From: an uncultured Thermodesulfobacteriota bacterium
GTDB lineage: Bacteria; Desulfobacterota; BSN033; WVXP01
DNA length: 64,000 nt
Direction of reading: 5' to 3'
Assembly: GCA_964347335.1 (NCBI GenBank)
Contig: CAYFYO010000003.1
Span: 6,180-70,179 of the forward strand
This document shows, piece after piece, positions 4,261-64,000 of this stretch (positions are counted from its first letter, which is position 1; every line of letters starts with the position of its first letter). A program made the position numbers and the translations under genes. Under the pieces are notes generated by a model, which ran no database searches, was not told the origin of the DNA, and saw nothing but the letters and a program-made list of their open reading frames with translations.

Positions 4261-5001
4261 TTGGATACGATGAACCCCATCGTTTATGCCTCGGCGATTG
4301 CAATGGTATCCCTTTTTGTCAGGGGATTCACAGGCTTTGGGTCTGCCCTTGTCATGACCCCCCTCTTGCTCTTTTTCTTCAACATCCGGACAACAGTCGT
4401 CGCGACGGCAATTGTAGAGATCCTGGGAAGTTTTTGGATCACCATTCAGGCCAGAAACGACTTCGATCGGCCCTACCTCACGATCCTTCTTCCCGTAGGC
4501 ATTTTCGGTATGCTTGCAGGCTCCTATGGCTTGGCCAATATCGACAGCGATTTGCTCAAACGAGTCTTTGGGGTTGTCACGGTTGTTTTTGCCATAAGGA
4601 TTATTCTCACTCTGCGCCAACCCCAGACAGCGAAGAAGACCTGGCCCAAGGGGTTCGGTTATCTGGCCGGTGCTTTGAGCGGTCTGCTCGGAGGACTCTT
4701 TGGTACAGCCGGGCCGCCCATCGTCGTGTTCTTGGAAAACCAGGTGAAAAACAAGAATGTGGTCAGGGCAACCCTGCTCGCTTATTTCATCGTCATAGAT
4801 ATTTTGCGTCTCATCCCGTACACACTCTCTCGGCTTGTGACGTGGCAGGTCCTCGAGATCAGCGCTGCCATGTTCCCGGCTTCACTGCTCGGGGCCTACC
4901 TTGGCAAGAGGTTTCACACGAGGGTCGGCGAAGGGGCCTTCCGATTTGCTGTGGGTAGCCTTCTCGCGATCACAGGTGTATTTCTCGCCCTTGGGCATTA
5001 G
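4261..5001 (+). CDS. TauE/SafE (DUF81) family sulfite/anion exporter
   Basis: About 8 TM helices with two glycine-rich repeats (GFTGFGSALVMTP and GGLFGTAGPP). Confidence 0.7.
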   Translation: MDTMNPIVYASAIAMVSLFVRGFTGFGSALVMTPLLLFFFNIRTTVVATAIVEILGSFWITIQARNDFDRPYLTILLPVGIFGMLAGSYGLANIDSDLLKRVFGVVTVVFAIRIILTLRQPQTAKKTWPKGFGYLAGALSGLLGGLFGTAGPPIVVFLENQVKNKNVVRATLLAYFIVIDILRLIPYTLSRLVTWQVLEISAAMFPASLLGAYLGKRFHTRVGEGAFRFAVGSLLAITGVFLALGH

Positions 5002-5116: not shown

Positions 5117-6520
5117 TTGAACCTTTCAGATGAAAAGAACCCTTCCGCAGGAAAAATGGTCGGTGAGCCGATGATTTCAGTGGGAGTGATGACTGTCCAA
5201 GAGCCTATTGAATTCCGTCTGGTTACGAGCTTTGAGGCCAACAGAAAAATGCGACTCTCTCCAGGAGAATACCGAGTTCGTCTTGATGGAGGCAGGATCT
5301 CTCTGCTCACGAACAAAGGTCAGGCCGTCATGCGAGCGCATTCACTCAGGCTGCTCCCCAGGCATCTTCGAGGAAGCCCTTTGGTTCTCAGACAGGTACC
5401 CATCGGGATAGGCTTCCACTGGGAGGAGAAGCAGGACTTGACTTTGCAGGGTGAATTCCACATCGAATGTCCCGAAGGAGAAGAGTTGCTCGTCATCAAC
5501 AGACTCCCTCTCGAGACTTACCTGTCCAGTGTCCTTGGTTCGGAAATGAGCGGCACTGCTCCGCTCGAGTTCCTAAAGGCCCATGCGGTCATCTCCAGAA
5601 GCTGGGCGCTTCGGAGAATGGAGAGAAAGGGTGCCATCGCCTCACCCGCTTCTCGGCCGACTGAGCCAACAGAGGGAACAATCCTTCGTTGGACCGGGGC
5701 AGAGAGTCATGAGGCCTTCGATGTTTGTGCCGATGACCACTGCCAGCGGTACCGTGGATTCCTAAAAGAGACCGCGCGTCCGACCAAACGGGCGGTCCAG
5801 GAGACCCGTGGGGAAATCCTCGTTTACGGAAATGAGATCTGTGACACCCGGTATAGCAAATGCTGTGGAGGAATGACGGAGAATTTCAAAACGGCATGGG
5901 AGGATCTGGACGTTCCTTATCTGCGAGGCCTACCCGATAACGACCACCCACCCTCGGGGTTTTGCTTCCCCCTGTCCGAGAATCGTCATGCCGAAGCATG
6001 GATCACCGGCTCCCCAGACGCCTTCTGCAATACGAGAGAAAGAGAACTCTTCGAAGCGATCCTTTCACCGATTGATCGGCAGACGACTGATTTCTACCGA
6101 TGGCAGATTTCGTACTCCCAAGAGGAAATCTCCGAGATCGTCTCCCAGAAAACGGGGAGACGACTCGGATGGATTCGCGATCTTTTCCCCGTCGAGCGGG
6201 GCGTCTCTGGTCGGATTTTTCGCCTCCGAATCTTGGGAACGTCACTGAACCTCACCGTTGGGAAGGAGCTCGAAATCCGTCGGATTCTCTCGCCCACACA
6301 CCTCTTTAGCTCAGCCTTCATCGTCGAGAAAGAACCAGGGAATCAAGGCATTCCCTCGGTCTTTCGATTTGTTGGAGCTGGATGGGGTCATGGGGTCGGA
6401 CTCTGCCAGATAGGCGCAGCGGCCATGGCCACTCGGGGTAGGTCATACCGGGAAATCTTGCGCCACTATTTCCCGGGTACGCGCCTCACAAAGCGTAACG
6501 GCGATTCGGAGGTTCGTTGA
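5117..6520 (+). CDS. SpoIID/LytB-domain protein (amidase enhancer family)
   Basis: C-terminal GAGWGHGVGLCQIGAAAMA motif characteristic of SpoIID/LytB; start uncertain (TTG 5117 or ATG 5153). Confidence 0.7.
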   Translation: MNLSDEKNPSAGKMVGEPMISVGVMTVQEPIEFRLVTSFEANRKMRLSPGEYRVRLDGGRISLLTNKGQAVMRAHSLRLLPRHLRGSPLVLRQVPIGIGFHWEEKQDLTLQGEFHIECPEGEELLVINRLPLETYLSSVLGSEMSGTAPLEFLKAHAVISRSWALRRMERKGAIASPASRPTEPTEGTILRWTGAESHEAFDVCADDHCQRYRGFLKETARPTKRAVQETRGEILVYGNEICDTRYSKCCGGMTENFKTAWEDLDVPYLRGLPDNDHPPSGFCFPLSENRHAEAWITGSPDAFCNTRERELFEAILSPIDRQTTDFYRWQISYSQEEISEIVSQKTGRRLGWIRDLFPVERGVSGRIFRLRILGTSLNLTVGKELEIRRILSPTHLFSSAFIVEKEPGNQGIPSVFRFVGAGWGHGVGLCQIGAAAMATRGRSYREILRHYFPGTRLTKRNGDSEVR

Positions 6521-6645
6521 AAATCTGGAAACCATATGCTAGATTTCCTGTAAACGATCACGGGATACAATGACCCTCAGGAAATCTGTGCATCCTCTTC
6601 CAAACTAGCGACAGGGGCTCAGAGTGAGCAGAGAATCTACGCTCT

Positions 6646-6682
6646 TTTTGCCCGATCGTGAGCTTTCGATCGGGCAAAAAAG
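6646..6682. other. perfect 14-bp inverted repeat hairpin
   Basis: TTTTTGCCCGATCG-tgagcttt-CGATCGGGCAAAAAA, seen directly in the sequence. Confidence 0.5.
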
Positions 6683-6905
6683 CTCAGTCCTTCCGGCGTA
6701 TTCACCGAGAGACAAATTGAAGGAGCCGGCAAATAGGGCGTCTCTCTGCCTGTCCTTTCCATACCGCCGGAGGCGGTAGCACGCATTTCATTGGGCCCCC
6801 CTGCCCAATGGAGATCTTCCCTCCTCGGCGGCCTCTGTTTCTCTGCGGGAGAGTCATTCCCGATCTGGGATAGGTTGCAAATTCACTCCGATTGAGGACT
6901 CATCG

Positions 6906-9479
6906 GTGGATCAAAGGATCGATCAGATTTTTCCCCTCGTATCTTGCCCAGCCCGTTACATGGGTGGGGAAAAGAATGCCGTCCAGAGGCCTTCTGACCA
7001 CGTCGAACTCCGGGTTGCCCTCGCCTTTCCCGATGTTTACGAGGTGGCCATGTCTCATGTGGGATTGGATATTCTGTACAACATCCTGAATCGAAGAGAG
7101 AATACTATCGCCGAACGGGTTTTCGCCCCATGGCCCGATATGGAAGGTCACATGAGGGCCAGAGGGATCCCTCTCGTAACACTCGAATCCTCTCGCCCCC
7201 TGCGGGATTTCGATGTTGTCGGCTTTTCACTCCAGTACGAACTCAGTTACACCAACCTTTTGAACATGCTCGATCTTGCTGGAATTCCCGTCTACGCCCG
7301 AACCCGTGGTGACGAATTTCCACTCGTGATCGCCGGTGGACCCAGCACGACTAATCCCGAGCCTATCGCAGACTTCTTGGATGCCGCCGTGATTGGAGAG
7401 GGCGAGGAGGTCATTTTGGAGATCTGCGATCGTGTCATCGAAGGAAAAAAGAATGGACGATCAAAAGCATCCCTGTTAGACGAACTCTCGCAGATCGAGG
7501 GGGTTTACGTCCCCTCCCTTTTCCATGTGGACTACCATAAGAACGGGAAGGTCAAGAGGATCGTTCCCCTTCGGGAGGATTACGGTCATGTCAGGAGAAG
7601 GATTGTTCACGATCTCAATAATATCTCCTATCCGACCGATCCCGTCGTGCCATGGTTGAAAGCAATCCATGACCGGCTGAGTGTTGAAATCGCCCGTGGA
7701 TGCAAGCGGGGCTGTCGATTTTGTCATGCGGGGTATATTTATCGCCCGTACCGCGAGCGAAGACCGGAAATCATCGAGGATATCATCAGAAAATCGCTTG
7801 ACACAACGGGCTACGAAGAGCTCTCTTTCCTCTCCCTCAGCACTGGAGACTATGGGGACATCGAGACCCTTCTCGCCAGGGTCATGGACCATTGTCAGAG
7901 AGGAAATGTGGCCCTTTCCTTTCCATCCCTTCGGGTGGAGACGCTAAACTCGGAGATGGTCCAGCAGATCAAAAGGGTTCGAAAAACAGGATTCACTTTG
8001 GCTCCGGAGGCAGCGACAGAGAGGCTGAGGCGGGTCATCAACAAGGAAATGGACGAGGAGAATCTGCTCGAGACAGCGAGAACGATTTACCACCATGGCT
8101 GGAACCTCATCAAACTCTACTTTATGATTGGCCTCCCGACCGAAACCGATGACGACGTGAGGGAGATGATTCATCTGGCCGAAAAGGTTCTCAAACAGGG
8201 CAAAGGGCTTAAGAGGCCCCCCCGCCTCAATGTGAGCGTATCGACCTTTGTGCCGAAACCCCATACCCCTTTCCAATGGGAACCCCAATTCACGCTGCCA
8301 GAGATACGTCTCAGACAGGAACTGCTTCAGAAAGGATTGAACTCTGGGAGAATCCGGTTCAAGTGGCATGACCCTAGGATGAGCCTTTTGGAGGGAGCAT
8401 TCTCCCGGGGCGGCAGGGAATTGTTTCGAGTCATTCACGATGCATGGCAAATGGGGTGCCGATTCGATGGCTGGAGCGAGTCTTTCAATTGGAAACGCTG
8501 GCTGAAAGCCTTTGAGAGGAATGGCATTGCCATCGATGCTTACACCCGACGCAGGGGGTTTTCTGAAATCCTCCCATGGAGCCATATTAAGTGCGGGGTT
8601 ACCGAGGGGTTTCTCAGAAATGAATGGGAGCGGTCCAGGGGGGAAGCCGGAACGCCTTCGTGTCGGACGGCGTGCACGGCATGTGGGATATGTGATGGAA
8701 AAGAAACCGCGGTGGTCTCTTGGAAGAAGCGCGAGAACCCTCCCGTCTCGACGATGCCCGTCCGAAAAAAAGGGGAGAAACCCATCACCCTCATCTTGGA
8801 ATTCGAGAAAGCAGGCCCTGCCAGGTTCCTGGGCCATCTCGACATGGCGAGAGCATTTCATCGTGCTGCGAGACGAGCGCGCATTCCCCTTCGATATTCC
8901 CAGGGCTTCCATCCTGCCCCCAGGATAAGTTTTGAAAGCGCTTTGGCCCTTGGCCTGGAGAGTCTGTGCGAGAAGATGAAATGGCAACTCGACATCCCCG
9001 TAGCCGATGAGTTGCTCCTGGCCGGAGTGAATCGGGAACTGCCTCCGGGACTCCACATCAAGCGACTCCTCCATGTCGGAGGAAAGCACCGTTTTGTCGG
9101 AGGAGCCGAGATGTGGTATCGGTACCTCGTGGCATTTCCCGAGGGTGTGTCGATGAGGCTTCAAAATCGGGTTCAGGAGTTCCTTGCGAGTGACCGATGG
9201 ATCGTGTCATGGGATGGGAAAGAACAGGAATATAACATCCGGCCCCATTTCGAATCGGTGATCCTTGCCAATGCGGTCTCTCTTGACGAATCTGTGATGG
9301 ATGTCTGGGCCGACCTTATCTGCGAGAAGGCGGGCTTTCTGGAAGTCATATTTCATCGAAGAGACAACATGAAGATTCGGATTGACAGAGCCCTCAGCAC
9401 AATGCTGTCTCTATCTGAGGAAACGAGGAGCCAGATCAGAATTCTCAAACTCGATGGGGCGAGCGCTCATGGTCGCTGA
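6906..9479 (+). CDS. radical SAM protein, B12-binding/rSAM domain fused to DUF2344-like C-terminal domain (TIGR03960/TIGR03936-type)
   Basis: GTG start; CxxxCxxC motif ARGCKRGCRFC; MGGEKN N-terminus; classic partner of RNase E/G genes; 857 aa. Confidence 0.8.
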   Translation: MDQRIDQIFPLVSCPARYMGGEKNAVQRPSDHVELRVALAFPDVYEVAMSHVGLDILYNILNRRENTIAERVFAPWPDMEGHMRARGIPLVTLESSRPLRDFDVVGFSLQYELSYTNLLNMLDLAGIPVYARTRGDEFPLVIAGGPSTTNPEPIADFLDAAVIGEGEEVILEICDRVIEGKKNGRSKASLLDELSQIEGVYVPSLFHVDYHKNGKVKRIVPLREDYGHVRRRIVHDLNNISYPTDPVVPWLKAIHDRLSVEIARGCKRGCRFCHAGYIYRPYRERRPEIIEDIIRKSLDTTGYEELSFLSLSTGDYGDIETLLARVMDHCQRGNVALSFPSLRVETLNSEMVQQIKRVRKTGFTLAPEAATERLRRVINKEMDEENLLETARTIYHHGWNLIKLYFMIGLPTETDDDVREMIHLAEKVLKQGKGLKRPPRLNVSVSTFVPKPHTPFQWEPQFTLPEIRLRQELLQKGLNSGRIRFKWHDPRMSLLEGAFSRGGRELFRVIHDAWQMGCRFDGWSESFNWKRWLKAFERNGIAIDAYTRRRGFSEILPWSHIKCGVTEGFLRNEWERSRGEAGTPSCRTACTACGICDGKETAVVSWKKRENPPVSTMPVRKKGEKPITLILEFEKAGPARFLGHLDMARAFHRAARRARIPLRYSQGFHPAPRISFESALALGLESLCEKMKWQLDIPVADELLLAGVNRELPPGLHIKRLLHVGGKHRFVGGAEMWYRYLVAFPEGVSMRLQNRVQEFLASDRWIVSWDGKEQEYNIRPHFESVILANAVSLDESVMDVWADLICEKAGFLEVIFHRRDNMKIRIDRALSTMLSLSEETRSQIRILKLDGASAHGR

Positions 9480-10986
9480 GCTTATTATGAATGCCTCTTT
9501 GGAGGAAACCCGGGTAGCCCTCATTGAGGGGGGCACGGTTGTGGAAGTCCATATCGAGAGAAACAAAGATCGGAGCATTGTGGGGAACATTTATCGGGGC
9601 AGAACGGTGAAGGTTCTTCCGGGCATGCAGGCGGCCTTCGTGGATATCGGCCTGGAGCGCGCGGCCTTTCTGTATGTTTCGGATGCCTATAGCAGCATCA
9701 AGGAGTATTCTCAAATGTTGAATGAGGGTTTTGAGGATCAAGATGCGCTTGAGCTTCAGTCTCCCCATCCCTCCTTCATCGAATCTGTGCAGATTGAAGA
9801 CGTCGTTCGCGAGGGCCAAGAACTTCTCGTCCAGGTTTCTCGGGAGCCTCTAGGAACCAAGGGGACCCGAATCACTTCCCATATCAGCCTTCCGGGACGA
9901 TACCTTGTCTTCATGCCAACGGTGGATCACATTGGGGTTTCGAGACGAATCAGAGACGAGTCCGAAAGGCATCGGTTGAGGGATATTGTACTCGCTGTCA
10001 GACCTCCAGGTGCAGGATTCATCGTCAGGACAGCCAGTGAAGGGGCCCATGAAGAAGAATTCCGGAATGATATGGAAATGCTGACAAAAATTTGGGAAAA
10101 CGTTCAGCGCAAAAATGACGGGGCGCCGACTCCCAGCCTGATTCACAGCGATCACGACATGGTTCTGAGGGCGATCCGGGATCTGATTACACCGGATGTA
10201 AAGCGTGTGGTCATCGATTCAGCAGAGGACTACGAAAGGATAATTCATTTTGTCGAGACCTATATGCCTCGCATAAAATGCGACATCGATCTCTATACGG
10301 GGAGGACCCCAATCTTCGATGCCCACGGCATCGAAACAGAGCTAGACAAAGCTCTGAAGCGCAAGGTCTGGCTGAAGTCTGGTGGACACATCCTCATCGA
10401 GATGACAGAGGCACTGACGGCCATTGACGTGAATACAGGCAAATTCGTCGGGAAGAGGAATCTCGAAGAGACAATACTGAAAACCAACCTCGAGGCCGCC
10501 AAGGAAATTGCTTATCAGCTTCGTTTGAGAGATATCGGCGGTATCATTATCATCGATTTCATTGACATGGAGAAAGATTCGAATCGGGAAATGGTTCATC
10601 AGGCTCTCGAACTCGCCTTAGCAAAGGATCGCACCAAATCGAATATTTCGAAAATATCCGAGTTAGGGCTCGTTGAGATGACTCGGAAAAGAACGAGAGA
10701 GAATCTTAGCCAGCTCTTGGGAGAGACCTGTCCCCATTGTGAGGGGCTTGGATATGTGAAGTCGAAGACAACGATTTGCTATGAGATTTTTAGAGAAATC
10801 GAACGAATCTCCTCCGATCTTGGCGGCGATACAGTTATGGTCGACGTCAATCCTGAAGTTGCCGAGATGCTTTGCGACGAGGAAAGAGCAGGCATAGAAC
10901 ACCTCGAAAGGAAGTTAGGTAAGAGAATCGTCGTGCAGGAGATACCTCGCTTCGAGCAGAGTGAATTTGAGATTGTGGACGTGTGA
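9469..10986 (+). CDS. rng: ribonuclease G (Rne/Rng family, S1 domain)
   Basis: MVAELIMNASLEETRVALIEGG...GNIYRGRTVKVLPGMQAAFVDIGLERAAFLYVSD aligns with the E. coli RNase G N-terminus; ATG overlaps the upstream stop by 11 nt. Confidence 0.9.
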   Translation: MVAELIMNASLEETRVALIEGGTVVEVHIERNKDRSIVGNIYRGRTVKVLPGMQAAFVDIGLERAAFLYVSDAYSSIKEYSQMLNEGFEDQDALELQSPHPSFIESVQIEDVVREGQELLVQVSREPLGTKGTRITSHISLPGRYLVFMPTVDHIGVSRRIRDESERHRLRDIVLAVRPPGAGFIVRTASEGAHEEEFRNDMEMLTKIWENVQRKNDGAPTPSLIHSDHDMVLRAIRDLITPDVKRVVIDSAEDYERIIHFVETYMPRIKCDIDLYTGRTPIFDAHGIETELDKALKRKVWLKSGGHILIEMTEALTAIDVNTGKFVGKRNLEETILKTNLEAAKEIAYQLRLRDIGGIIIIDFIDMEKDSNREMVHQALELALAKDRTKSNISKISELGLVEMTRKRTRENLSQLLGETCPHCEGLGYVKSKTTICYEIFREIERISSDLGGDTVMVDVNPEVAEMLCDEERAGIEHLERKLGKRIVVQEIPRFEQSEFEIVDV

Positions 10987-11030
10987 GGTTCACCCGATCG
11001 GATTTCACAGATCCTCCCCCAGCAGGACGA

Positions 11031-11320
11031 GGGAAAAAGGGGTAAGGAGGGGAACTCCGAACAAGCATTTGTTATTTGTCATTCGTTATTTGTTCCTTGT
11101 TATTTGTCATTTGGCACTTAACCCTCAGTCTCTCGTCTCCAGTCTCTAACCTTAGTCTCTAGCCTCTATTCTCTAATCTGTGGGCTCTAATCTCTGATCT
11201 CAACTCTCTACTCTCTCGTCTATGGCCTCTCGTCTCTGGCCTTTATCCTTGAACCTTTATCCTCTGACCCATGAGCCGGCCCCACGGCTTTCGCAAAGTC
11301 CCTCAGGGACAAAAGGATAT
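11031..11320 (+). repeat. intergenic heptanucleotide tandem-repeat element, copy 1
   Basis: About 34 consecutive degenerate 7-mers in one register (gggaaaa|aggggta|...|catttgt|tatttgt|...|tctctcg|tctccag|...|ctttatc|cttgaac|ctttatc|ctctgac), then conserved hairpin gtccctcagggac; homologous to copies at 19386 and 24030. Confidence 0.8.
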
Positions 11321-11352
11321 CTGAAACTCGAGAAATTGTTTCGAGTCGAACA

Positions 11353-11381
11353 TTGACTTTTCACGGGAAATGGCTTATTTT
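11353..11381 (+). promoter_or_regulatory. sigma70-like promoter for the rplU operon
   Basis: TTGACT-17 nt-TATTTT, 37 bp upstream of the rplU ATG. Confidence 0.5.
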
Positions 11382-11417
11382 TTGGGTTTGTTTTCCTTAT
11401 CCTAGAGGGATTACAGC

Positions 11418-11729
11418 ATGTATGCGATATTCGAGACAGGAGGAAAGCAGTATAAGGCGTCGGAAGGCGATCTTGTCCGGGTTGAGCGCCTGAATGGTCG
11501 GGTTGGCGACGAGGTCCGGATCACCGATGTATTGATGGTCGCTGACAAAAAGGGGCACAAGATCGGTACCCCGCTTGTGCCCAAGGCCCAGGTTATTGGG
11601 CAGATCGTTGAGCAGGGAAGGGACCGGAAGATCATCGTCTTTAAGCATAAACGGCGCAAGGGTTACCGCCGGAAAATCGGCCATCGTCAACCTTACACCT
11701 GTTTAAGAATCGACAAAATCAAGGGATGA
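11418..11729 (+). CDS. rplU: 50S ribosomal protein L21
   Basis: [25 protein letters not shown] conserved L21 N-terminus. Confidence 0.95.
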
Positions 11730-11760
11730 GACACCTCGTGGGTCTCAGGAGGTACCGTTC

Positions 11761-12015
11761 ATGGCACACAAGAAGGCAGGTGGGAGCTCTCGGAATGGGA
11801 GAGACAGTGCTGGACAGCGCCTCGGGGTAAAGAGGTTTGGGGGACAGGTCGTGAGGGCTGGCCATATACTGGTCCGACAGCGAGGAACCAAAATCCACCC
11901 TGGAACCAATGTGGGTATGGGTCGAGACTACACCCTTTTTGCGAGAATAGACGGCAGGGTTCAATTTGAAAAAAGAGGAAAAGACAAGACGCTCGTCAAT
12001 ATAGTCGTCCCTTGA
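11761..12015 (+). CDS. rpmA: 50S ribosomal protein L27
   Basis: [29 protein letters not shown] conserved L27. Confidence 0.95.
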
Positions 12016-12052
12016 TGCCCTCCTCACTGGTCTCTCAATACACAATGACCTT

Positions 12053-13114
12053 ATGAGATTCATCGATCGTGCCAAGGCCTATGTCCGCGCCGGTAATGGG
12101 GGGAATGGCTGCGTTAGTCTTCGGAGGAAGCGATTCCAACCCAAGGGGGGGCCCGACGGAGGGGATGGGGGCAAAGGAGGAGACGTTATCTTTGTCGGCG
12201 ACGCTCAGATGGCGGGTCTCCACGATCTCTCTTCTCGTCCTCGCCTCATCGCCCAGGACGGACAACAGGGCAAGGGGAATAACCAATCCGGAAGGGATGG
12301 CCACGATCTAGTCGTTCGCCTTCCTATAGGTACGCTCGTGATTGACGCGAGGACCAATGATGTTCTAGAGGATTTGAACGAGGACCAGAAGAGATTCTTG
12401 GCAGCACGGGGAGGACGTGGAGGTCGTGGCAATGCAAGATTTGTCACGCCTTCAAACCAGGCCCCGCGGCGGGCACAGAAGGGAGAGAAAGGAGAGGCCC
12501 GCTGGCTCAGGTTTGAATTGAAACTTGCCGCGGACGTCGCACTCATCGGCCGCCCAAATGCGGGAAAGTCCACCCTTATCTCCAAGATCTCCTCGGCCAG
12601 ACCCCGGATTGCCGACTATCCTTTCACGACGAAATCGCCTCACTTGGGAGTCGTGAGGTACGGCGACTTCAAGAGTTTCGTCGTCGCTGATACACCCGGT
12701 TTGATTGAGAACGCCCACCGAGGGTGTGGCCTCGGAATAGATTTTCTCAAGCATGTGGAGAGAACGGCACTCCTTGTCCATGTCCTCGATATCACACGAC
12801 TTCCCGATCAAAGTCCTCTCGAAGATTATGAGATTCTCATAAGAGAGCTCGGGGCCTTCAGCCCTGCACTTCGAGAAAAACCCCATCTGGTTGCCATCAA
12901 CAAAGTGGATCTACTCGATTCCTCTCAGCCATTGGAGGAAACCGAGCGGATATTTGCAGAATTGGGTATCAGCCCCCTTCCGATCTCTGCCCTCACGGAA
13001 AAGGGGCTCGGTGTTTTGGTTGAAGAAATCGCACAGAGGCTCGAAGAACTAAAACCCATTGTCTCAGAGAGAGGATCCATTGGCACGCAAGAACCCTCGA
13101 CCCGGCATCTTTAA
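12053..13114 (+). CDS. obg: GTPase Obg/CgtA
   Basis: Glycine-rich Obg fold N-terminus (RAGNGGNGCVSLRRKRF, GGDGGKGGDV), G1 GRPNAGKST, G3 DTPG, G4 NKVD. Confidence 0.95.
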   Translation: MRFIDRAKAYVRAGNGGNGCVSLRRKRFQPKGGPDGGDGGKGGDVIFVGDAQMAGLHDLSSRPRLIAQDGQQGKGNNQSGRDGHDLVVRLPIGTLVIDARTNDVLEDLNEDQKRFLAARGGRGGRGNARFVTPSNQAPRRAQKGEKGEARWLRFELKLAADVALIGRPNAGKSTLISKISSARPRIADYPFTTKSPHLGVVRYGDFKSFVVADTPGLIENAHRGCGLGIDFLKHVERTALLVHVLDITRLPDQSPLEDYEILIRELGAFSPALREKPHLVAINKVDLLDSSQPLEETERIFAELGISPLPISALTEKGLGVLVEEIAQRLEELKPIVSERGSIGTQEPSTRHL

Positions 13115-14216
13115 AAGGGCCAGACGAATTGTGATCAAGATAGGTTCGAGCGTTCTTGTAGAAAAAGGGCTCGGCCTCGATCTTGTGGCCTTTTCCAAAC
13201 TGGCCAAGCAGATCTCGAAGCTTCACAGCGGTTCCCGAGAGATCGTCCTGGTCACATCTGGTGCAATCGCCGCCGGCATGGAAAAACTCGAATACCGGCG
13301 AAGACCCGATGACATCCCTCACATTCAGGCTGCAGCGGCGGTTGGACAGACGTATTTGATGAAGATATACCAGGACTGTTTTGCAAATTACCATAAGAAG
13401 GTCGCGCAGATCCTCCTGACCCATGATGACCTTGGCAACCGCCGCCGGTATCTGAATGCGAGGAATACGCTATTAACCCTCATAAAACTGGGTTTTATTC
13501 CGATCGTAAATGAGAATGATACGGTTGCCGTCGAGGAGATCAAATTCGGTGATAATGACAACCTCTCTGCACTCGTCACATCCCTGGTGAGTGCGGATCT
13601 CCTGATTATGCTCTCCGACATCGAGGGGCTATATGACGGTGATCCGAAACTCGGTGAGCGAGCAAAGTTGATTCATCTCGTGGAGGACATCGATCGAGAA
13701 ATCTTGGATTGTGCCAAGGAGACAACGAATCCCCTGTGCATTGGCGGAATGGCCAGCAAGATTGAGGCGGCGCGGAAAGCCGTTCGATTTGGCGTCTCGA
13801 CAGTCATTGCAAACGGGAGAGTCGATAGCATTCTCAATCGAATTCTCGAGGGAGAAGTCGTGGGAACGCTTTTTCTGCCTCTGGCCGATCGTTTGAGCAG
13901 CCGAAAACAGTGGATTGCCTATGGTCTCAAACCGGCCGGCCGGATCGTCGTCGACGAAGGCGCCAAAAAGGCCCTCGTTTCGGATGGAAAGAGTCTCTTG
14001 CCGACAGGCATTATTGACGTAGAAGGTGATTTCGAGCGGGGAGATTCAATCTCCTGCTTCGATTCGAAAGGATTGGAGTTTGCCAGGGGGCTGGTGAACT
14101 ATAACCGCCAAGAACTTCAGAGCATCCAAGGGAAGCGGAGCCGGGAGATCGAAGGACTTATTGGATACAAATATAGCGACGAAATCATCCATCGCGATGA
14201 TCTCGTCGTTCTTTAA
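13059..14216 (+). CDS. proB: glutamate 5-kinase
   Basis: IVIKIGSSVL N-terminal kinase motif and C-terminal PUA domain; true start probably downstream (TTG around 13080 or GTG around 13129), because ATG 13059 overlaps obg by 56 nt. Confidence 0.9.
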   Translation: MSQREDPLARKNPRPGIFKRARRIVIKIGSSVLVEKGLGLDLVAFSKLAKQISKLHSGSREIVLVTSGAIAAGMEKLEYRRRPDDIPHIQAAAAVGQTYLMKIYQDCFANYHKKVAQILLTHDDLGNRRRYLNARNTLLTLIKLGFIPIVNENDTVAVEEIKFGDNDNLSALVTSLVSADLLIMLSDIEGLYDGDPKLGERAKLIHLVEDIDREILDCAKETTNPLCIGGMASKIEAARKAVRFGVSTVIANGRVDSILNRILEGEVVGTLFLPLADRLSSRKQWIAYGLKPAGRIVVDEGAKKALVSDGKSLLPTGIIDVEGDFERGDSISCFDSKGLEFARGLVNYNRQELQSIQGKRSREIEGLIGYKYSDEIIHRDDLVVL

Positions 14217-62812: not shown

Positions 62813-62821
62813 CTGAGTCAC

Positions 62822-63075
62822 GAAATGTTTGGGTGTAGGGAAGACGGTGAGAAGCCGTCGCGGACCCGCCGCTGTGAGTGGGGACGAAAGCCACAGAGTG
62901 GGCCACTATTTCGCTCGAGCGGAATGGGAAGGCGTGGTGAGTAGGAGGATCCACGAGCCAGAAAACCTGCCCAAGACGTTGCTCCAAAAACATTCCTCGA
63001 GGGGTGGGAATATGGAGTCGGCGAGGGAAGTCGGTCTGATCGCAATCCGGGGTCAGGCTTTTTTTGTCTTCGAGA
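62822..63075 (+). ncRNA. cobalamin (B12) riboswitch, cis-regulatory leader
   Basis: GGGAAGACGGTGAGAAGCCGTCGCGGACCCGCCGCTGTGAGTGGGGACGAAAGCCACAG core and B12 box GAGCCAGAAAACCTGCCC; T-run GGCTTTTTTTG about 63058-63068. Confidence 0.75.
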
Positions 63076-63231
63076 GCGTTCAAGCGCCCTCCATTTGACC
63101 AATCTCCTTTTCCCAATATCCCTCTCTTTCTCTATTGCACTTGTCTGGGACACGAATACCAGGTCAGCGCAAAGACCTTCTATTCATATGGAACTTCCTG
63201 TCCCTAAACTGAGAAGTCAAAGGAGAAGACC

Positions 63232-64000
63232 ATGGCAAGATGGCTAAAGTTCAAGTTTTTCGCGACCCCTCTGACCCAGGCTATCGGGTCAGACGGCTCG
63301 AACACCGAGCTCGCAATACCCGAAGTGCGGGGGAGCGATGCCCGGAATCGGTTCATTCACCGCTGGAACGCTTGGGCCATGCTATCCCTCGCACTTGTCT
63401 CAGGCCCGGCTCTGGCTCAGGAGAAAGAGGAGGTACCTATCCTGGGAGAGGTCGTGGTCACGGCAACACGAAAAGAGGAGGAGATCCGTAAGATTCCGGC
63501 AAACGTGACGGTCATCACCGAACAAGACATTGAGAACTCCAACGCCAAGACCGTCGCCGATCTGCTGCGATCTGAAGAGGGCATCGTTGTGAGAGACCTT
63601 ATTGGGAATGGAAAGAGTGCACAAGTCGACCTTCGCGGTTTCGGAGAAACGGCACCCTCCAACACCCTGGTGCTCGTTGACGGGCGGCGGGTCAACGAAA
63701 TCGATCTCAGCGGCGTCGATTGGACACAGATCCCCCTGGACCAGATCGAACGAGTCGAAATTGTCCGGGGCAGCGGGAGCGTTCTGTTCGGGGATAACGC
63801 CGTGGGTGGCGTGATCAATATCATCACGAAAACCCCCGCCGAGAAAGTGACCATGAGGGGTGAAATTCTTGCCGGGAGCTACGGACGAATTAGAGAAGAA
63901 GCATCGATCAGCGGAGGCTATGAGAACGTGGCCGCTTCCCTCTCTGGCAGCTATGACTCAACGAATGGGTACCGGGAAAACGGTGAGTTTCGGACGAGAG
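63232..64000 (+). CDS. TonB-dependent outer-membrane receptor (BtuB-like), 3'-truncated by window edge
   Basis: RBS AAGGAGAAG before ATG 63232 (not in ORF track because the frame is open at the window end); signal peptide AMLSLALVSGPALA/QE; plug domain with TonB box VVVTATR and IERVEIVRGSGSVLFG. Confidence 0.8.
   Translation, partial: MARWLKFKFFATPLTQAIGSDGSNTELAIPEVRGSDARNRFIHRWNAWAMLSLALVSGPALAQEKEEVPILGEVVVTATRKEEEIRKIPANVTVITEQDIENSNAKTVADLLRSEEGIVVRDLIGNGKSAQVDLRGFGETAPSNTLVLVDGRRVNEIDLSGVDWTQIPLDQIERVEIVRGSGSVLFGDNAVGGVINIITKTPAEKVTMRGEILAGSYGRIREEASISGGYENVAASLSGSYDSTNGYRENGEFRTR

Follow-up and report, generated by a model that had tools for sequence, protein, structure and literature searches.

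A gene within a 64,000-nucleotide stretch of contig CAYFYO010000003.1 from an uncultured Thermodesulfobacteriota bacterium (the whole stretch is called the window below) encodes an 857-residue protein that joins a radical S-adenosylmethionine (radical-SAM) enzyme to a DUF2344 domain, and its stop codon overlaps the start of rng, the gene of an RNase G-type ribonuclease. The protein is a regular member of the catalogued, functionally uncharacterised TIGR03960/TIGR03936 family. To what is recorded for the family, our analysis adds the loss of the catalytic aspartate from a TruA-type fold in DUF2344, a conserved second cysteine motif and a quantified linkage to rng. We give about even chances to the reading that the protein is an RNA-directed radical-SAM enzyme, probably acting on ribosomal RNA (rRNA), whose dead pseudouridine-synthase module holds the substrate and which is co-expressed with RNase G. 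This is the best-supported reading because of the architecture of the protein and the linkage of its gene to those of RNase G/E and of ribosomal proteins.

The N-terminal and central parts of the protein score 753.7 bits against the NCBIfam model TIGR03960 (curated cut-off 462.3), with residues 6–596 aligned to positions 1–598 of the 605 in the profile, and residues 629–796 score 132.9 bits against TIGR03936 (curated cut-off 71.9). Pfam places Radical_SAM_N2 (PF19864 in database matches) on residues 53–203 with 216 bits, and DUF2344 (PF10105) on residues 630–785 with 126 bits (cut-off 23.8). An earlier note on this DNA, made from the sequence, had assigned a radical-SAM core followed by a DUF2344-type C-terminal half; both profiles bear this out beyond their curated cut-offs, and the CKRGCRFC motif that it named is encoded at 7701–7724. 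It had also called the family functionally uncharacterised, in agreement with the full-text literature, where we found no functional study of TIGR03960, TIGR03936 or DUF2344. An AlphaFold2 (AF2) model of the full-length protein has a predicted local distance difference test (pLDDT) score of 89.7 and a predicted template modelling (pTM) score of 0.91, the latter indicating that the two modules would pack against each other in a fixed, defined manner.

To place the protein within its family, one genome per species was scanned, which gave 80 loci from many phyla. The fused form occupies 39 of them, in Desulfobacterota, Nitrospirota, Ignavibacteria, Aminicenantes, Sumerlaeota and one Ruminococcus; another 38 are split, the DUF2344 gene lying directly 3' of the radical-SAM gene, in Bacillota, Chloroflexota and Actinomycetota. 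Because about −23 to +14 nt separate the radical-SAM stop from the split DUF2344 region in Bacillota, the halves can be taken to act as one unit, and they clearly function together, a pairing already recorded in the database models. The comparison of fused and split forms, which the earlier note had proposed, thus upholds its view of a single unit; its use of the fusion as a distinguishing feature of this gene does not stand. Among the matches listed (of at least 8,000), 120 of 120 carry PF19864, PF04055 and PF10105 in one chain of ~800–900 residues, under the JGI product name 'radical SAM family uncharacterized protein/radical SAM-linked protein', and the NCBIfam short names are 'rSAM_fuse_unch' for TIGR03960 and 'sam_1_link_chp' for TIGR03936. 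Our protein differs in nothing substantial from the thousands of database proteins of 800–900 residues that share this architecture. The DUF2344 domain alone yields 8,234 representative clusters (50% identity, E ≤ 1e-3), and stand-alone proteins of ~220 residues occur beside fused ones of ~850 residues among the best 150 of these. A Faecalibacterium duncaniae protein named 'Radical SAM-linked protein' (C7H7V6) was found by proteomics, enriched in the insoluble fraction (PMC13020158); assuming that it is a stand-alone DUF2344 protein, as its name alone suggests, this form is expressed.

The DUF2344 half lends support to an RNA substrate. An AF2 model of residues 610–857 (pLDDT 90.6) matched Pus3, TruA and Pus1 in Foldseek (E 1.5e-7 to 5e-5, TMq ≤ 0.58), and a profile of 75 diverse DUF2344 domains ranked Thermus thermophilus TruA first among 177,635 PDB sequences (E 0.0039). 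In tblastn, a 65-residue TruA fragment matched the DUF2344 regions of the loci with the register unchanged. Pfam itself puts DUF2344 among the pseudouridine synthases (PMC7955657), and its PseudoU_synth model gave no match to the 857-residue protein at E ≤ 0.01. These alignments set G683 on the glycine of the TruA motif GVHA (within RTDAGVHA), so that A681 occupies the column of the catalytic aspartate. Across the 75 sequences this column holds P in 36, S in 22, A in 8, G in 7, and T and Q in one each, with aspartate in none, and no conserved acid appears in the flanking columns. DUF2344 is thus, on the evidence of these alignments, a pseudouridine-synthase homologue that would be unable to use that chemistry: it is catalytically dead because the aspartate is absent from 75 of 75 sequences. 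(We considered equating YSQGFHP with the TruA segment RTDAGVH and dropped it, the profile and tblastn alignments both placing G683-x-E-S on GVHA.) Unlike TruA, Pus1 and Pus3, the domain has lost the RTD motif, has gained an S-x-G-F-x-P-x-P insertion that forms its own signature, and is attached to or encoded beside a radical-SAM enzyme; its conserved basic residues are K635, R640, R653, R656 and R657. The fold matches also include proteins of mitoribosome assembly intermediates (PDB entries 9hny_FB, 6sga_FB/FC and 6yxx_ED), which we take to be catalytically inactive members of the pseudouridine-synthase fold and which, unlike DUF2344, belong to eukaryotic organelles and have no radical-SAM partner. 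No truA gene was found in the window or in the loci.

The radical-SAM half carries a second conserved feature at its junction with DUF2344. C586, C590 and C593 are conserved in 79 of 81 homologues, which span many phyla and include split forms, and C596 in 49; the three-cysteine arrangement would fit an auxiliary [4Fe-4S] cluster with one open iron. Residues 1–250 hold no conserved cysteine in the 81 homologues, and a MiaB-type auxiliary site in the N-terminal domain is therefore ruled out. In the comparison of the radical-SAM part with solved structures, the two tabulated values were 22.3 and 360 for MgmA, a cobalamin-dependent glutamine C-methylase, 19.5 and 389 for CysS, 18.8 and 340 for RimO, 17.7 and 361 for MiaB, 17.6 and 399 for TsrM, 17.4 and 364 for AprD4, and 16.1 and 393 for TokK; by sequence, MgmA and RimO are the only solved relatives. 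In MgmA, a cobalamin-carrying Rossmann domain is joined to a partial TIM barrel and a C-terminal domain (PMC11796369). The fold of our protein resembles cobalamin-binding (MgmA, TsrM) and cobalamin-free (RimO, MiaB, AprD4) relatives alike; 'B12-binding-like plus radical-SAM core', as the earlier note had it, is hence correct as a description of the fold, an architecture that cobalamin-free enzymes also have. The Pfam B12-binding model reaches 23 bits on the 857-residue protein, under its cut-off of 32.1. Elsewhere in the window a cobalamin riboswitch (RF00174, 97.2 bits) lies at 62814–62988 on the forward strand, and 3' of it (63000–64000) an open frame that runs off the window end resembles the plug domain of a BtuB-like, TonB-dependent receptor. 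The organism seems to take up B12; this agrees with, and is no evidence for, a cobalamin-dependent radical-SAM enzyme.

Against the characterised enzymes the differences are clear. The class B radical-SAM methyltransferases (MgmA/QCMT, CysS, TsrM and TokK) share only 13–19% identity with the protein, which fails their equivalog models widely (TIGR04014, 38.7 bits against a cut-off of 360) and adds the conserved cysteine motif and the TruA-like domain. From MiaB, RimO and MtaB it differs in having no cysteine triad in the N-terminal domain and no Pfam match to TRAM, and in placing its second cysteine motif after the core, where theirs comes before; TIGR00089 gives 35.3 bits (cut-off 251). The logic of MiaB and RimO is parallel and the parts are different: here an N-terminal domain and a radical-SAM core are joined to a second metal site and to a binding module of nucleic-acid type. 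RimO binds ribosomal protein S12 through its RNA-type TRAM domain, an analogy for the possibility that the TruA-like module has been re-used for protein docking and that the target of the enzyme is a protein of the translation machinery, such as a ribosomal protein (L21, L27 or L19) or RNase G itself. Both of the best-matching characterised folds, MgmA and RimO, act on proteins (PMC11796369), and the neighbouring genes encode ribosomal proteins as often as RNA enzymes. We consider a protein substrate unlikely all the same, given that DUF2344 keeps the entire TruA fold together with its basic residues and that its solved, aspartate-less and presumably inactive fold relatives 9hny_FB, 6sga and 6yxx sit in mitoribosome assembly complexes.

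The genomic context points in the same direction as the fold. Seventy loci, each with at least 1.8 kb of downstream sequence, were informative for linkage, and in 39 of them an Rne/Rng gene is the next same-strand gene after the radical-SAM/DUF2344 unit (21 of 33 fused, 18 of 37 split), in at least four phyla (Desulfobacterota, Nitrospirota, Bacillota and Actinomycetota). Adjacency by chance would give far fewer such loci. The linkage, which the earlier note had called widely conserved, is real and common, yet partial. In six Clostridia loci without an adjacent rng (L038, L039, L058, L064, L073 and L075), rplS (L19) lies on the same strand within three genes downstream of the radical-SAM and DUF2344 pair. 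A class I SAM methyltransferase gene separates the pair from rplS in L058, rplU-rpmA-obg follows the unit directly in L075, and an RsgA/MMR_HSR1-type GTPase is found nearby in L054. Since ribosomal genes recur where rng is absent, the recurrent theme is the translation apparatus generally and not RNase G alone.

The same neighbourhoods could be read as operon hitch-hiking, with a small-molecule or unrelated metabolic substrate and DUF2344 merely a structural lid. The neighbours in loci without rng are heterogeneous, with 130 Pfam families among 89 open reading frames (ORFs; called as longest ORFs, which yields antisense artefacts, and used only for this count), 44% of the informative loci lack rng, and the rplU-rpmA-obg-proB-nadD cluster is itself functionally mixed. 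Such a reading seems to us quite improbable: adjacency to one given gene is expected by chance about once in several thousand per genome and is observed in 39 of 70 loci from four phyla, and the rng linkage persists across the transition between fused and split forms, with ribosomal genes recurring where it is missing.

At the junction itself, the radical-SAM stop (TGA, 9477–9479) overlaps the rng ATG by 11 nt, exactly as the earlier note had reported. Neither of the findings that the earlier note had named as refuting it, a C-terminal half unrelated to DUF2344 or an rng start far downstream, was made. The rng start is well placed: the codon at 9469 (ATG) corresponds to the first position of the RNase G equivalog profile NF008689, to which the product aligns end to end with 562.2 bits, slightly below the cut-off of 594, the N-terminus MVAELIMN fits the conserved MxxELIIN of relatives, and independent gene calls in relatives give the identical start. 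The 505-residue ribonuclease consists of the RNase E/G catalytic domain (~500 residues) and has no RNase E scaffold. In four close relatives (59–71% identity) the gene calls overlap by 11, 8 and 11 nt or leave a gap of +10 nt; among more distant fused loci the junction ranges from about −29 to +309 nt, with spacers of 38–148 nt in Geobacteraceae. The overlap exists in part because the TGA lies in rng codons 3–4 (NNT-GAR), where it is supplied by the conserved glutamate codon of MxxELIIN. Most relatives have purine-rich Shine-Dalgarno-like runs 5' of the rng ATG. Co-transcription of the two genes is very likely, and translational coupling, which the earlier note had proposed, is plausible from the arrangement of the genes and would be confined to the clade of close relatives in which they overlap or abut. 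A 5-bp hairpin around the rng ATG and the radical-SAM TGA (9465–9481), considered as a coupling element, is not conserved in relatives and was dropped. A promoter and terminator scan of 6400–11500 gave signals no higher than the shuffled expectation, and Rfam returned no credible match there, two miRNA-precursor matches merely mirroring a hairpin.

Gene overlap of this kind suggests stoichiometric co-production, which, together with the dead pseudouridine-synthase module, would suit a partner of RNase G with a non-catalytic or regulatory role, such as an RNA chaperone that senses SAM or the state of an Fe-S cluster or redox conditions and delivers substrates. We regard this as very unlikely: the radical-SAM cysteine triad and the SAM-binding core around it do not vary among the 81 homologues, which speaks for retained radical chemistry, and many carriers have no adjacent rng.

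Returning to the RNA-directed enzyme, its mechanism may be pictured as follows. The [4Fe-4S] cluster on C266/C270/C273 would cleave SAM to a 5'-deoxyadenosyl radical, while the aspartate-less TruA-type module would dock a structured RNA (an rRNA precursor or an intermediate of ribosome assembly being the likeliest, a tRNA less likely) and offer a nucleotide to the radical-SAM active site. An auxiliary cluster on C586/C590/C593, at the junction of the modules, might bind or activate the substrate or donate an atom, and the Rossmann-like N-terminal domain could be either a cobalamin holder, pointing to methylation, or a structural relic free of cobalamin. Co-expression with RNase G, whether or not the two proteins come into contact, would set the modification in the same step of RNA maturation. 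Somewhat more tentatively, and with odds that we would put below even, the TIGR03960/TIGR03936 proteins may form a distinct, undescribed class of RNA-modifying radical-SAM enzymes, two-metal-site or cobalamin-dependent, whose aspartate-less module flips out a nucleotide of an rRNA precursor and which would account for an unassigned rRNA modification at RNase G/E-dependent maturation in Desulfobacterota, Clostridia, Actinomycetota and others.

Several observations weigh against an RNA substrate or against parts of this mechanism. The closest solved relatives include the protein-acting MgmA (on MCR) and RimO (on S12), an RNA-type binding fold is no proof of an RNA substrate, and in the full-text literature we found no experimental or other evidence for any substrate. 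The second cysteine motif could bind zinc and not an Fe-S cluster, and cobalamin binding cannot be read from a fold that AprD4, RimO and MiaB share, with the Pfam B12-binding model under its cut-off. With no rng nearby in 31 of 70 loci, RNase G is therefore not an obligate partner. The earlier note's suggestion of an RNA-modifying enzyme has nonetheless gained real support from the TruA-type fold of DUF2344, and it is in this sense that we infer an RNA substrate.

Table 1. Positions in the window of the radical-SAM/DUF2344 gene, its parts and its neighbours.
Feature	Position	Strand	Evidence
TauE/SafE-family membrane protein, upstream	4261-5001	+	
SpoIID/LytB-domain protein, upstream neighbour	5117-6520	+	TIGR02669, 182.8 bits
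Shine-Dalgarno-like GAGGA, 6 nt 5' of the GTG start	6895..6899	+	direct sequence reading
Fused TIGR03960 radical-SAM/TIGR03936 (DUF2344) protein, 857 aa	6906..9479	+	ORF list, NCBIfam, AF2
N-terminal Rossmann-like 'B12-binding-like' domain, residues 53-203, no conserved Cys	7062..7514	+	
Radical-SAM core, residues 260-425	7683..8180	+	PF04055, 73.5 bits
CX3CX2C motif CKRGCRFC (C266/C270/C273), ligands of the SAM-cleaving [4Fe-4S] cluster	7701..7724	+	translation; conserved in 81/81 homologues
Second Cys motif CRTACTACGIC (C586-X3-C590-X2-C593-X2-C596), candidate auxiliary Fe-S (or metal) site, core/DUF2344 junction	8661..8693	+	translation
DUF2344 domain (residues 627-851), a complete pseudouridine-synthase fold of TruA type lacking the catalytic Asp	8784..9458	+	
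Overlap (11 nt) of the radical-SAM/DUF2344 stop (TGA 9477-9479) and the rng start (ATG 9469-9471)	9469..9479	+	sequence
Rne/Rng-family ribonuclease, RNase G type, 505 aa	9469..10986	+	PF10150, 363 bits; PF20833, 53 bits; TIGR00757, 530.9 bits (cut-off 326)
Downstream context: rplU 11418-11729, rpmA 11761-12015, obg 12053-13114, proB 13059-14216	11418..14216	+	ORFs; same order Pfam-labelled in L082-L084

The gene itself opens with a GTG at 6906. An NCBI protein (P0001) that is 100% identical begins at ATG 6960, 18 codons later, and has 839 residues; P15, conserved in 77 of 81 homologues, and Y18, conserved in all 81, are both encoded 5' of that ATG. Because of these conserved residues and the GAGGA Shine-Dalgarno sequence, GTG 6906 is the better start, so that we prefer the 857-residue reading of the earlier note and the public annotation of P0001 is probably 18 codons too short. 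The 385-bp spacer between the SpoIID gene and the radical-SAM gene (6521–6905) contains an isolated perfect 14-bp hairpin, TTTTTGCCCGATCG-N8-CGATCGGGCAAAAA, at 6645–6680 on the forward strand. It occurs once in the window, and the fold of 6615–6710 has z = −3.4; no T-tail follows the stem on either strand, and it is not a textbook terminator.

As part of the explanation that we favour, the radical-SAM gene would be transcribed with rng and head the rng-rplU-rpmA-obg-proB cluster. Beyond proB, ORFs fit the proA, nadD and rsfS of relatives by size and order. Four close relatives have in common the order SpoIID, radical-SAM/DUF2344, rng, rplU, rpmA and obg, and SpoIID is kept immediately 5' of the radical-SAM gene in L082–L084. 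The spacer between rng and rplU (10987–11417) is unusually long at 431 bp, with 133–248 bp in L082–L084; it has no Rfam match, and promoter and terminator signals in it are not above chance.

The gene in this window is a routine family member, its exact protein already being in NCBI, and the significance of the analysis lies with the family. DUF2344 occurs in many bacterial phyla, with gut Clostridia and Streptomyces-type actinomycetes among its carriers, and has no recorded function. Classic model organisms are absent from our sample of loci, and Escherichia coli and Bacillus subtilis are not known to have a TIGR03960/TIGR03936 protein, which would explain why the family has been neglected. 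For this large orphan family the analysis offers a testable hypothesis, namely that the substrate is RNA, that C586/C590/C593 form an auxiliary site and that the dead TruA module serves as the reader. If true, it would reveal a new mode of substrate recognition in radical-SAM RNA chemistry and would probably assign an orphan rRNA or tRNA modification.

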